From: Octopus vulgaris
Lineage: Eukaryota
Direction of reading: 5' to 3'
Assembly: GCA_951406725.2 (NCBI GenBank)
Contig: OX597822.1
Span: 70,990,001 to 71,054,000 of the forward strand
Length of the DNA: 64,000 nucleotides
The translations under genes and the position numbers were made by a program. Below, in pieces: positions 18,391 through 50,853 of the stretch. The notes below the pieces were generated by a model. It saw only the letters and a program-made list of their open reading frames with translations, did no database searches and was not told where the DNA came from. How positions within the stretch are numbered: position 1 is the stretch's first letter; every line of letters begins with the position of its first letter.

Positions 18391-18586
18391 TAGTTGAAAT
18401 TTACAGAAAAACAAAAGACAAAGACAGTTGTATAAACAACAAGCAGGTGCATTAGTTTGATGCTCAGGAAGGTGAGAAAGTCTTTTATGTTTCGAGCCTA
18501 TGCTCTTCAACAGAAAGGAACATGAGGAAATAAACAGAAAGAGAATAAAAAAACTTGTAGAGTTAGTGGTGGTCAATCATGGTGAG
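18391..18586 (-). mobile_element. ~200-nt hammerhead-bearing element (CUGUUGA family)
   Basis: Aligns end-to-end with 50661-50853; (TA)n at 3' end. Confidence 0.65.
18482..18517 (-). ncRNA. Minimal hammerhead-like motif with CUGUUGA core
   Basis: Minus strand CTTT-CTGTTGA-A-GAGC-atag-GCTC-GAAA-CATA-AAAG. Confidence 0.55.
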
Positions 18587-18636
18587 CACGCACATATATA
18601 TGTACATATATATACATATATGTGTGTGTGTGTGTA

Positions 18637-19032
18637 TACTCTTACTCTCATTTACTCTTTTACTCGTTTCAGTCAGTTGACTGCGGCCATGCTGGAGCAC
18701 CACCTTTAGTCGAGCAAATTGACCCTAGGACTTATTCTTTGTAAGCCCAGTACTTATTCTATCGGTCCCTTTTGCTGAACCACTAAGTTACAGGGATGTA
18801 AACACACGAGCATCAGTTGTCAAGCGATATTGAGGGGACAAACACAGACACACAAACACACACACATATAAATATATACAACGGGCTCCTTTCAGTTTCC
18901 ATCTACCAAATCCACTCACAAGGCTTTGATCAGCCCGAGGTTATAGTAGAAGACACTTGCCCAAGGTGCCATGCAGTGGGACCGAACACGGAACCATGTG
19001 GTTGGTAAGCAAGCTACTTACTACACAGCCAT
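18637..19032 (-). mobile_element. SINE family A
   Basis: Reverse complement of family A. Confidence 0.88.
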
Positions 19033-19231
19033 ATGTATATATATGTATGTATATATATGTATGTGTGTGTGTGTATATGTGTATATATGTATATATATGT
19101 GCATATAGATATATATATGTGTGTACATACATATATATGCATATATGTATAGATATAGATATATATGTATATAGATATATATATGTGTGTGTGCGTGCAC
19201 ATGTGTGTATATGTATGTATATATATATTGA

Positions 19232-19582
19232 ATAGGTTTGGAAAAGTTCAGGGAGCTACTATTGCTGCTGTTAGCAAAAGTATTTTCCTACAGAGTGAAA
19301 GGTAGATTGTATGATACTTATGTCAGAACTGCAGTGTTGCATGGCAAGTAAGACAAGGACAGTCAATGAAGAGGATATGAGAAAACTGGAAAGAAATGAA
19401 GTGAGCTGTTTCATTGGATGTGCAACGTAAGTGTGCATGAATGACATAATTTAAATGTGTTGAGAGAAAGATTCGGCATAAGAGGAATCAGATGTGATGT
19501 ACAAGAAAGAAGACTGCAATTGTATGGAAATGTGATGTGTATGAATGAAGACAGTTGTTAAAGAAGTACCAATCACTAGATG
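19232..19582 (+). mobile_element. Decayed RTE LINE fragment
   Basis: GWxKFREL-like start, VKGRLYD, MRKLERNE, WMCNVSV; homologous to 55791-56200. Confidence 0.7.
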
Positions 19583-19664
19583 TAATAATAATAATAATAA
19601 TAATAATAATAATAATAATAATAATAATAATAATAATAATGATAATATAATAATAATAACAGTA

Positions 19665-19880
19665 ATCTTTTCTACTCTCAGCACAAGGCCTCACATTTTT
19701 GGGGAGGGGGGCCAGTCAAGTAGATCGACTTCAGTACGCAACTGGTACTTAATTTATCGACCCTGAAAGGATGAAAGGCAAAGTTGACCATGGTGGAATT
19801 TGAACTCAGAATGTAAAGATAGATGACATACCGCTATGCATTTTGCCCGGTGTGCTAATGTTTCTGCCAGCTCACTACCT
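19665..19880 (-). mobile_element. SINE family B inserted in (AAT)n
   Basis: Reverse complement of family B. Confidence 0.8.
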
Positions 19881-20007
19881 TAATAATAATAATAATAATA
19901 ATAATAATAATAATAATAATAATAATAATAATAATAGTAATAATAATAATGATAATAGTAATAATAATAATAATAATAATAATAATAATAATAATGATAA
20001 TGATAAT

Positions 20008-20060
20008 AAGCTATGCCAACACTATGGAATAACAACAGAAAAAAGATGGTATAGACACAA
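20008..20060 (+). mobile_element. R4/Dong-like LINE fragment following (AAT)n
   Basis: KLCQHYGITTEKRWYRH resembles the R4/Dong region before the RLE domain; preceded by long (AAT)n. Confidence 0.5.
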
Positions 20061-20140
20061 GGTAAAAGAAAATGCCTATAGTAGAAAGGATTATTATTAC
20101 TATAATAATAATAATTATTATTATTATTATTATTATTATT

Positions 20141-20693
20141 GAGAGAGCAGTGCATGCCATCAAATTGACATTGGGGTACAAATATATGAAGCCTAGTGTA
20201 CCCGTCATGAGTACCCGTCTGATAAGGGTACACCACGTACATGAATCACAGCCATATGTGTATGACATGGTGATCTCATATCAAGATAAACAGCGTATGA
20301 TCTAGCAGGTGGAGTCCAGTTAGAATTTTGTTCAGGTTGAGTAGTTCATCCCACTCAAAGGGTCTCTGAATAAGGGTTGTTTAAGAATGTTGAACAAAAC
20401 ACCCAAGTTTCCATACATGAATTATTCAAACGTCAAAGAATTCCACTCAACACATGGCTATGATGCTCCCCGACTACTTCTGCTTGTGATCAGAGATGCA
20501 CATACCATTAGCCACCAAGAGAAATGCTCAACTGGTTATGGTCAAGCAACTGACAAGCAAATCTGTGGTATTGAGCAGAATATTTGCTGTAGCCCATCTT
20601 TTATACCAAGGCAAAACATGAACATGATAACACTTCCAATCATTTAAGATCAGAAGCCATGAGAGCCACTGCCTGGTACGGCATCAGGGCATT
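20141..20693. mobile_element. ~550-bp non-coding element inserted in (ATT)n microsatellite
   Basis: Complex sequence sharply bounded by (ATT)n on both sides. Confidence 0.55.
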
Positions 20694-48470: not shown

Positions 48471-48473
48471 TTG

Positions 48474-49349
48474 TTGGTTGAGGAAGGTCATGTGGTTTTG
48501 TGGTTTGATGTTAGTATAACCATATATCAGTGATAACAGTTAGTTGGTGTTGGCTCTGCTGTGAAGAGCTCTCTGCTGGAGTTGGTAGAACTCAGCAGTG
48601 ATGGTTTGGAGCAGATACACTCACTTCAACTGCACACTTCTGATGGGCTTATCAACCCTCTACTCCACACAAGATGTCAAGGATAAGTTCTATGATCAGT
48701 TTCTCGGAAAGTACAAGGTACCCCATATGGTACCACATGTGAACAGGAAATCAACCACATGGTGGACAGGAAATCAATCAGGTTGTTGGAGGGGAGGTGA
48801 GAAGGGGCAGTATGTGTAAGTATATAGTTGGATATGTTGGTGTTGATGCACTTAGACGGTTTTCTGTGCATGTTTATATTGATGCGAGCATGTGCATCTG
48901 CAGATGGGCATGCATGTATATGCCCACACATACACATACACACATATATATATATGTATATATATGAACAGACATGCATATGTGCACACACACATACACA
49001 TGCATGCACACACACATCCATACATGCGTATTCATTCATATGCACAATGCATGTATTTGTATATTTGTATATGTATGTGTGTGTGGGTGTGTGCATGTGC
49101 GCCCATGTACAGATGTGCATGCTTGCATCAATACAGACATGCAAACAAAACCATATGAGCGTGTCCACACACCCACATATCCAACTTGCGCATACTGCCC
49201 CTTCTCACCTTCCTTCCAATAACCTGAACGATTTCCTGTCCACTATGTGGTCGATTTTCTGCTCACCATGTGGTGTTTCCCAACTGTTGTCACTGATATA
49301 TGGTTATATCAACATCAAACCACGACACCATGCGACCTTCCTCGACCAA
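48474..49349. repeat. ~880-bp imperfect palindrome
   Basis: 48474-48545 pairs with 49281-49349; 48730-48945 pairs with ~49070-49277; centre near 49000. Confidence 0.8.
48546..48700 (+). mobile_element. RTE-type AP-endonuclease fragment
   Basis: GVGSAVKSSLL..(frameshift)TLYSTQDVKDKFYDQ resembles the APE GVGFAV..YAPT..KDxFY motifs. Confidence 0.6.
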
Positions 49350-49507
49350 TCAGAGCCCGCCTTACAGTAATAACAATCAACTTCTTTGATTCAAATTCAA
49401 AATGGCTGAAGATTAGCATCATGCTTGAAACTCTCGGAGTACCAATGAATTTGAATCAAACTGTTTTGATCAATACATACATATATACATATACATACAT
49501 ATATATA

Positions 49508-49721
49508 TAACGGGAAGCTTTATGAAAATAGACAAAAGACGAAGGCAGGTGGAAAACAAACAAACAATTGTATTAGTATGGCGCTCAGGAAATATAAATA
49601 AAACAAGTCTTTAACGTTTCGAGCCTACGCTCTTCAACAGAAAGATACACAGAGAGAAAAAAAATACAGAAAGAAGGAGAGAAAAAAAATGCATGCAGTA
49701 ACTAACGAATCAACATGGCGA
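49508..49721 (-). mobile_element. ~200-nt hammerhead-bearing element (CUGUUGA family)
   Basis: Starts GTCGCCATGTTGA on minus strand; (TA)n flanks. Confidence 0.65.
49608..49645 (-). ncRNA. Minimal hammerhead-like motif with CUGUUGA core
   Basis: Minus strand TCTTT-CTGTTGA-A-GAGC-gtag-GCTC-GAAA-CGTT-AAAGA: perfect 5-bp stem I, 4-bp stem II, ACGU palindromic stem III, GUU triplet. Confidence 0.65.
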
Positions 49722-49741
49722 CATATATATATATATATATA

Positions 49742-50082
49742 AAGGGTAAAGACCCCCTTCGGTCATGAATGACCATGGGATTGCACCTAGAAAGTTGCCC
49801 TTCTAGACACAAGTCCGGGCAAGGTTGTTTTTTTTATGGAAGACCAGCAGTCGCCCATGCATACCAGCCTCCCCTCTCCACGCCACCAGTGTTATCCAAG
49901 GGAAAGACAAAGGTCGATACAGCTTGGCACCAGTGACGTCGCAACTCATTTCTACAGCTGAGTGAACTGGAGCAACGTGAAATAAAGTGCCTTGCTCAAG
50001 AACACAACACGCAGCCCGGTCCGGGATTTGAGCTCACAACCTCACGATCGTAAGCTCGACGCTCTAACCACTGAGCCATGCA
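49742..50082 (-). mobile_element. tRNA-derived SINE
   Basis: Minus strand TGGCTCAGTGGTTAGAGCG..GAGCTCAAATCCCG..TTGAGCAAGGCACTTTATTTCAC. Confidence 0.7.
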
Positions 50083-50240
50083 CATATGTACATATATTCA
50101 TATTCAATATGTATGACGTGTGTATACATACATTCAATATATATGATGTGTGTGTGTATATATATATACACACACACATACACAAATAATGTAATGTGGA
50201 GTAATGATAAATGCACAAAAAACCGTAATTGGAATTTTAA

Positions 50241-50436
50241 AGCTTTATATAACATACCTGTGTTTCCCCAAGCCGATTGGCACTATTGTGCAAGTCAATT
50301 GTCATACGGTCTTGGTGTTGAATTAATAGCAAATAAACATTTTTTCTATTGTTAATGCATGAAGATGCATGCCGATTGGCTTGCACAACGAAAGTGCCAA
50401 TCAGATTTTGGAAACATGCAGATGTTTTATATAGCT
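50241..50436. repeat. Foldback/MITE-like inverted repeat
   Basis: 50241-50305 is the imperfect reverse complement of 50369-50436. Confidence 0.75.
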
Positions 50437-50660
50437 TAAAAACCAGTTTGTTTTCATTATTTCTTATTGCTTACGACGTGGCTCAAAGTCCACATGCTAG
50501 CTTATCCTGCAATATGATGGTTATTTTGAAACTACATGGAACATAGGAGTGGAGTGTGAAGCTGTTTACTGAACCAAAAATATCTGGTAATGTCACATGC
50601 TTCCCATCACACTTTTAAGCTGTATAAAATTGAATATTATATAAATATGCTATATAACCA

Positions 50661-50853
50661 GTCACCATGCTTGATCGCTAAGTCCACAAGCTTTTTTACT
50701 CTCTCTTTGTTTATTTTCTCTTATTTCTTTCTGTTGAAGAGCATGGGCTCAAAATGTAAAAGACTTTCTCACTTTCCCGAGCATCAAACTGATATACCTG
50801 CTTGTTTTTCATACACTTGCCTTCGTCTTTTTTCTTTCTGTAACTTTCAACTA
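50661..50853 (+). mobile_element. ~200-nt hammerhead-bearing element (CUGUUGA family)
   Basis: Starts GTCACCATGCTTGA, ends ..TTTCAACTA. Confidence 0.65.
50726..50763 (+). ncRNA. Minimal hammerhead-like motif with CUGUUGA core (decayed)
   Basis: TCTTT-CTGTTGA-A-GAGC-atgg-GCTC-AAAA-TGTA-AAAGA; GAAA->AAAA and CG->TG fit CpG decay. Confidence 0.5.

Follow-up and report, generated by a model that had tools for sequence, protein, structure and literature searches.

A family of short dispersed repeats in Octopus vulgaris with a U6 variant of the minimal hammerhead motif

The 64,000-nucleotide (nt) stretch of the Octopus vulgaris genome analysed here (contig OX597822.1, positions 70,990,001 to 71,054,000, forward strand; hereafter the window) is AT-rich animal DNA, dense in microsatellites, and harbors three copies of a ~200-nt repeat that contains a hammerhead-like motif. 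Copy c1 (18391–18586, minus strand) is a ~196-nt element that resembles the pseudo-long terminal repeats (pLTRs) of Penelope-like elements (PLEs) and is flanked by (TA)n/(CA)n runs. Copy c2 (49508–49721, minus strand; ~214 nt) lies inside (TA)n and is near the majority letters of its kin, and copy c3 (50661–50853, plus strand; ~193 nt) has AT-rich flanks. Copies c1 and c3, which share 82.6% identity, make up subfamily A; c2, at 73–74% identity to c1 and c3, belongs to subfamily B. The initial annotation of the window had described three homologous copies with a common 5′ start, and both points are confirmed. In all three, the element extends ~100 nt upstream and 90–100 nt downstream of the predicted ribozyme cut.

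Position 6 of the hammerhead core is an A that is strongly conserved, nearly invariant, in hammerheads. In the octopus repeat it is U in every copy (18510 in c1, 49637 in c2, 50734 in c3), as had been noted at the outset, and the surrounding CTGTTGA-A-GAGC-N4-GCTC is present in 3/3 copies. A pattern for the U6 motif that tolerates up to 3 mismatches has 3 matches in the window and none in any of 100 shuffles. No extra copies were found in the window, and an nhmmer profile search recovered just the five input copies, namely these three and the two sister copies described below.

Among the three window copies, only c2 has a complete core. Its motif (49608–49645, minus strand) consists of stem I (49645–49641 with 49612–49608), C3 at 49640, U6 at 49637, an extra A9.1 at 49633, stem II (49632–49621), G12 at 49620, an ACGU helix III (49617–49614) and H17=U at 49613, directly after which the cut is predicted. 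The c1 motif (18481–18518, minus strand) has C3 at 18513, U6 at 18510, stem II at 18505–18494 and H17=A at 18486; its 3′ half reads GAAAC-ATA, with G16.2 changed to A at a CpG site, so that helix III is ACAU and the palindrome is lost. In c3 (50726–50763, plus strand; C3 at 50731, U6 at 50734) the 3′ half is GCTC-AAAATGTA, with G12 changed to A at 50751 and C15.2 to T at 50755, each at a CpG site, and with the loss of G12 the c3 ribozyme is predicted to be dead irrespective of position 6. The GAAAC(G)T 3′ half, which the initial annotation had counted in the shared motif, is thus altered in two of the copies, and only the 5′ part of that motif is common to all. The conserved stem pairing that it had proposed is found: stem I measures 4 bp in c1 and 5 bp in the other two copies, stem II measures 4 bp in 3/3 copies, and no compensatory changes or covariation occur in the stems of these three copies. 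On inspection we rejected a register shifted so that the core would be UUGAAGA, as it breaks stem I and places a C-U mismatch in stem II. Rfam returned 10 matches at E up to 10 for 49300–49740 and 292 for the whole window; no hammerhead was among the former or among the 150 of the latter that were listed, and the matches, of microRNA type and driven by microsatellites, were discarded.

Judged by its sequence, the motif is a U6 variant of the minimal type I hammerhead of PLEs. Together with CUGUUGA it displays the extra base 9.1, the G10.1-C11.1 pair, stems I and II and a loop-less ACGU helix III. The minimal hammerheads in PLE pLTRs (Cervera & De la Pena 2014, PMC4209133; e.g. Acropora Neptune) likewise have a U-rich upstream region, a 4–5 bp helix I, an extra base between 9 and 10.1, G10.1-C11.1, a palindromic 15.2–16.2 without loop 3, an NUH cleavage site and dispersed single copies. 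Their consensus, however, is CUGANGAH, and their core variants fall at positions 3 and 8 (U3-A8, one U3-G8), not at 6. Measured against C3 U4 G5 A6 N7 G8 A9, the octopus core departs at position 6 only (U in 3/3 copies and in the majority of the sequencing contigs described below), and the other six positions conform. G12, A13, A14, A15.1, U16.1 and H17 are present in c1, c2 and the contig majority, while c3 is without G12; the palindrome of helix III, broken in c1, is ACGU in c2 with no contig variant at 4%. A natural A6U hammerhead was not found in the literature searched, in which A6C was found, so a PLE minimal hammerhead with U6 fixed across a family is new as far as that search reaches. 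The search did not take in the survey by Lunse, Weinberg and Breaker in RNA Biol, reportedly a large collection of PLE-linked hammerhead variants, which could contain U6 examples.

Whether U6 is the family consensus had been left to a genome-wide alignment, for which we substituted a proxy, overlaying contigs of public sequencing runs on c2 (49495–49735). Runs matching 49480–50900 carry four organism labels, A to D, with word shares of 0.48–0.84 for the ten best. Three contig sets were used, X11 (2,394 contigs; organism A, RNA by guess), X8 (8,243; organism C) and X10 (4,853; organism D); contigs at least 80% alike to c2 were counted, and alternative letters were listed from 4%. At position 6 (49637) no alternative letter reaches 4% in any of the three sets, at a summed word depth of 1.2–2.0 million, and the same holds across 49614–49627 and 49629–49644. 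The overlay did detect variants nearby, at 3–5% at 49628 and 12–15% at 49645. Contig depth peaks on the hammerhead core. Position 17 varies between U and A only, both of which fit the NUH rule, with A at 59–70% of depth (shares weighted by contig word depth, not copy counts). Contigs of the c1/c3 type cross position 6 and break off at 49644, leaving at least 53, 185 and 155 loose ends in X11, X8 and X10, respectively. With no alternative reaching 4% at 49637 and the c1/c3-type contigs continuing past it, most members of both subfamilies carry U6 in each of the three contig sets, and U6 is not local decay. We regard it as very improbable that history or method, and not selection, accounts for the fixed U6 core, through a recent core exchange between subfamilies or a preferential overlay of U6-bearing contigs. 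The 80% likeness to c2 demanded of counted contigs, the comparison of no more than three full copies and the lack of core coverage in the raw reads of run X22 leave room for such an effect; yet a single mismatch cannot bring a contig below 80%, variants 8–9 and 24 bases from position 6 were detected, and c1 and c3, decayed by ~9% each, keep U6, which makes the change old.

Two sister copies in the window carry A6. The first (6900–7112, plus strand; CTGAAGA at 6982) is decayed and serves as an outgroup within the genome, and the second (61396–61537, plus strand; CTGACGA at 61404) has its 5′ part missing. Downstream of the core, the second copy and the U6 family have in common the block TTCCTGAGCG...TAATAC, with a score reached by 2, 2 and 8 of 500 shuffles; homology of the first copy is weak there (13–69 of 500 shuffles reach the score), and upstream of the core sister homology is not significant (49–473 of 500). 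The sister family had been credited with canonical A6 cores on the same stem. The A6 cores stand, but only the 5′ arm of stem II is shared with the U6 family; the 3′ arms are ACTT and GCTT with a 3-nt loop, and both are decayed.

A scan outside the genome for the same architecture, with positions 6 and 7 left free, yielded 122 loci (118 in metagenomes and 4 in prokaryote genomes) and 0 matches in viral contigs. A6 is found in 112 of the 122, including every match that continues with GT, and the 10 non-A6 matches are all without U16.1; the 122 are not independent, since many closely duplicate a single family resembling the Acropora Neptune motif. The four prokaryote-genome matches and one metagenome match with TT (L029), all without U16.1, were taken as chance. 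A PLE endonuclease region lies upstream on the same strand at 3/122 outside A6 loci, ending ~190–860 bases before the core. The PLE representatives in Fig. S3 of PMC4209133 have A6 in 56/56 cases, a count biased by a descriptor that required A6. Because the sister copies, most outside matches and these representatives all have A6, it looks to be the ancestral state.

The core has diverged differently from its flanks. Columns in which c1 and c3 agree with each other and differ from c2 number 2/39 in the core vs 43/153 in the ungapped flank (Fisher p=0.0014), while changes private to one copy number 5/39 and 25/153 (p=0.8). Inserted copies decay neutrally, with equal rates for core and flank. 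Since the differences between subfamilies are sparse in the core while the private changes are evenly spread, the source elements held the core, U6 included, as their flanks diverged.

Such constraint need not be catalytic. It is possible, though we think it unlikely, that the ribozyme is dead and that what is retained in the 39-nt core is a signal of structure or sequence, either an irregular hairpin or a site bound by the PLE protein; U6 would then be the change that ended catalysis and closed the hairpin. Both of them fixed, U6 and U7 complete a 13-pair hairpin that is predicted in 3/3 copies. In the Poseidon PLE of Anolis the hammerhead needs the PLE protein in order to cut, catalytic mutants remain able to insert in vitro, so that cleavage is dispensable there, and RNA-seq gave no reads ending at the cut site (PMC11167929). 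In a study of Xenopus retrozymes (bioRxiv 10.64898/2026.07.22.740005), 8/9 dimers remained uncleaved, and our contigs, which cannot show RNA ends, have no depth step or end pile at the cut site. A hairpin would not explain, however, why bases left unpaired in it (C3, G8, A9, A9.1, G12, A13 and U16.1) are without a variant at 4%, or why position 17 is limited to U and A, the pattern expected of a working core; nor does the hairpin contain any compensatory pair.

Published data on position 6 suggest that a working U6 core would be slow. A natural A6C hammerhead, that of phage Bcep176, has an observed rate constant (kobs) below 0.1/min (Perreault 2011, PMC3088659), and is strongly impaired in Mg2+ but rescued by Mn2+ to a kobs of 0.18–0.31/min (Naghdi 2020, PMC7151607). 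It offers a natural change at the same position with low activity, which we would expect here too; it differs in having C in place of U and in being one phage sequence, tested in vitro, where the octopus repeat is an animal family of high copy number. All single changes in the CUGA turn are reported, from a complete pairwise scan of mutants, to give low activity without rescue; the data consulted include no value for A6U itself (PMC9901934). That U6 is instead fully tolerated, the motif cutting about as fast as its A6 relatives when it acts as a dimer, with loop-II tertiary contacts, with the PLE protein or with another cation, seems improbable. The strong constraint at all remaining core positions would fit such a ribozyme, and the Mn2+ rescue of A6C (PMC7151607) indicates that some conditions make it possible to bypass position 6; the low activities of the scan, the impairment in Mg2+ and a competing pairing that U6 is predicted to add argue the other way. 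The initial annotation had offered a tolerated variant and an attenuated ribozyme as alternatives. The two are not exclusive, and the analysis supports both, in that U6 would be tolerated, being fixed and constrained, and attenuated, to go by the published position-6 data.

The competing pairing joins U4–U7 with A14–G16.2. Its predicted probability is 0.75–0.99 in c1 and c2 with U6 and at most 0.24 with A6, and the same pairing (4–7 with 14–16.2) has a mean probability of 0.001 in 55 A6 outgroup sequences. By prediction, the ACGU palindrome on which the active dimer depends is thereby hidden. A6U could then be a self-locking switch, spread over several subfamilies and species, that is off in the monomer, so that the template survives, and on only once it is opened by the Penelope protein or by a partner copy; we put this forward as a doubtful proposal. 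As a strong lock the alternative hairpin was rejected, being present in silico but unexceptional against A6 outgroups.

We lean, with modest confidence, towards reading the family as dispersed ~200-nt units, likely non-autonomous PLE derivatives, whose family state is the U6 hammerhead and whose ribozyme has likely not been abandoned but made slow and subject to gating, either by dimerisation or by the element's protein. Each of the window copies runs across the predicted cut, and must therefore have been templated by RNA that was uncut or had been re-joined. The 5′ boundary common to the copies points to a short unit that has a start of its own and would be transcribed from this fixed end and mobilised in trans. 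Copying would be performed by a PLE reverse transcriptase (RT)/endonuclease, likely of Neptune type, into (TA)n targets; c1 and c2 lie in (TA)n and c3 in AT-rich DNA, and a bias of PLE insertion to AT-rich or (TA)n targets has been described (PMC8557442). A cut near nt 100 would halve so short a template, and for this reason a slower ribozyme might cost the unit little or even help it. Activity would be lowered in two ways, as U6 forgoes the contacts of A6 in the CUGA turn and, by prediction, pairs U4–U7 with A14–G16.2, masking the palindrome. Residual, assisted cleavage could explain why every other catalytic position is retained.

Several points weigh against this interpretation. No autonomous PLE with an RT and GIY-YIG frame ending in a U6 unit was seen, and the published PLE representatives, with the bias noted above, have A6 throughout. 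The cleavage rates of U6 are predicted from data on other changes at position 6, the literature examined giving none for A6U. The stem II loop and N7 are as invariant as the catalytic bases; catalysis need not fix them, and therefore the constraint could be one of sequence recognition rather than catalysis. The constraint test is built on three copies, and depth in the contigs follows their word depth. The predicted lock is modest: to the energy gap that separates a copy from its active dimer, U6 adds 2.0 kcal/mol for c2, 5.2 for c1 and -0.4 for c3; the gap in c2 (7.5) falls inside the range of 47 A6 outgroups (5.7–36), and the stability of the local fold does not exceed that of shuffles (z about -1). 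In the raw-read DNA run X22 (1.9 billion letters), 49 reads matched, all on the pyrimidine tract 5′ of the core and none on the core, and the run was set aside. X22 carries the same species label as the best-matching run, and the repeat core is apparently abundant; a label mismatch or read filtering is possible.

Other hammerhead-bearing elements provide partial parallels. Animal non-long-terminal-repeat retrozymes (PMC7229834; bioRxiv 10.64898/2026.07.22.740005) are also short, AT-rich, non-coding, equipped with a type I hammerhead and likely PLE-derived, but they form tandem repeats with mostly canonical cores and circular RNA, unlike the solo copies and minimal core of the U6 family. Poseidon (Frangieh 2024, PMC11167929) shares a pLTR hammerhead, AT-rich targets and genomic copies from uncut RNA, and differs in being autonomous, with a canonical core and demonstrated protein-assisted cleavage. 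The family bears on why PLEs keep hammerheads, given that insertion did not require cleavage in the single in vitro system. Present in high copy number, with a near-invariant base changed and the rest kept, and found beside an A6 sister family, it amounts to a natural experiment. Cleavage by the U6 motif would mean that the consensus accepted for the core is drawn too narrowly and that whole families escape motif searches; a lack of cleavage would mean that the hammerhead fold serves retrotransposition in some non-catalytic way. Were the self-locking proposal true, searches that require A6 would have missed all such families.

Two PLE relics lie in the window, both presumably of Neptune type. 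The first (8908–9765, plus strand) contains an RT end, a CxxC linker and a GIY-YIG domain (E=0.0004; 21.1 bits, under the cut-off of 22.6). The second (46901–48190, plus strand), broken and 39% identical to the first, has a CxxC linker and a GIY-YIG-like end and lies 1.3 kb from c2. The first relic demonstrates PLEs in this genome, and not a partnership with the U6 family. No sequence link between the relics of the window and the U6 family was found, the 3′ region of the second relic being without a match to it. Frames at 55791–56210 (minus strand) and 31842–32201 (plus strand), without a Pfam match of note, resemble the C-terminal ends of long interspersed nuclear element (LINE) reverse transcriptases.

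The window copies are solo, and no head-to-tail joint was listed in the three contig sets, whose short contigs could miss one. A spliced intron in the pyrimidine tract was dismissed, X11 contigs having no splice-like joint there, as was an excess of copies that begin at the cut, 3′ of which contig depth is lower. The pyrimidine tract (49645–49690, minus strand, with equivalents in c1 and c3) is made of degenerate CT(T/C)TCTGT repeats, the letters of which are those of stem I plus CUGU, and U6 may have originated or been retained as part of this repeat motif. At their 5′ ends (18586, 49721 and 50661) c1, c2 and c3 start with RCCATG, followed by a stop 4–5 codons on. The start of c2, CGCCATGTT, fits the YY1 motif, CGCCATnTT; several outside A6 families begin with AAGATGGCG, the same motif reversed, ~28 bases ahead of the core. 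The RCCATG/CGCCATnTT start is a possible candidate for an initiator element. The same frame is stop-free across the element in c1 (18220–18576, minus strand) and c3 (50560–50856, plus strand), with no start codon in that frame at the element's 5′ end, probably by chance in T-rich DNA.

Directly downstream of the second PLE relic, 48474–49349 forms a large imperfect inverted repeat (48732–49274, 73% over 564 columns; 48474–48541 vs 49282–49349, 87%) that resembles the inverted pLTR structures known for PLEs. A third hammerhead-like core is found ~60 bases from c2, at 49387–49460 (plus strand), with CTGAAGA at ~49407, an extra T, a short stem and GAAAC. Neither stem I nor helix III can be made out in this core, which sits in a 14-bp inverted repeat (fold z=-3.25), and the segment that holds it has an inverted partial copy at 48474–48541.

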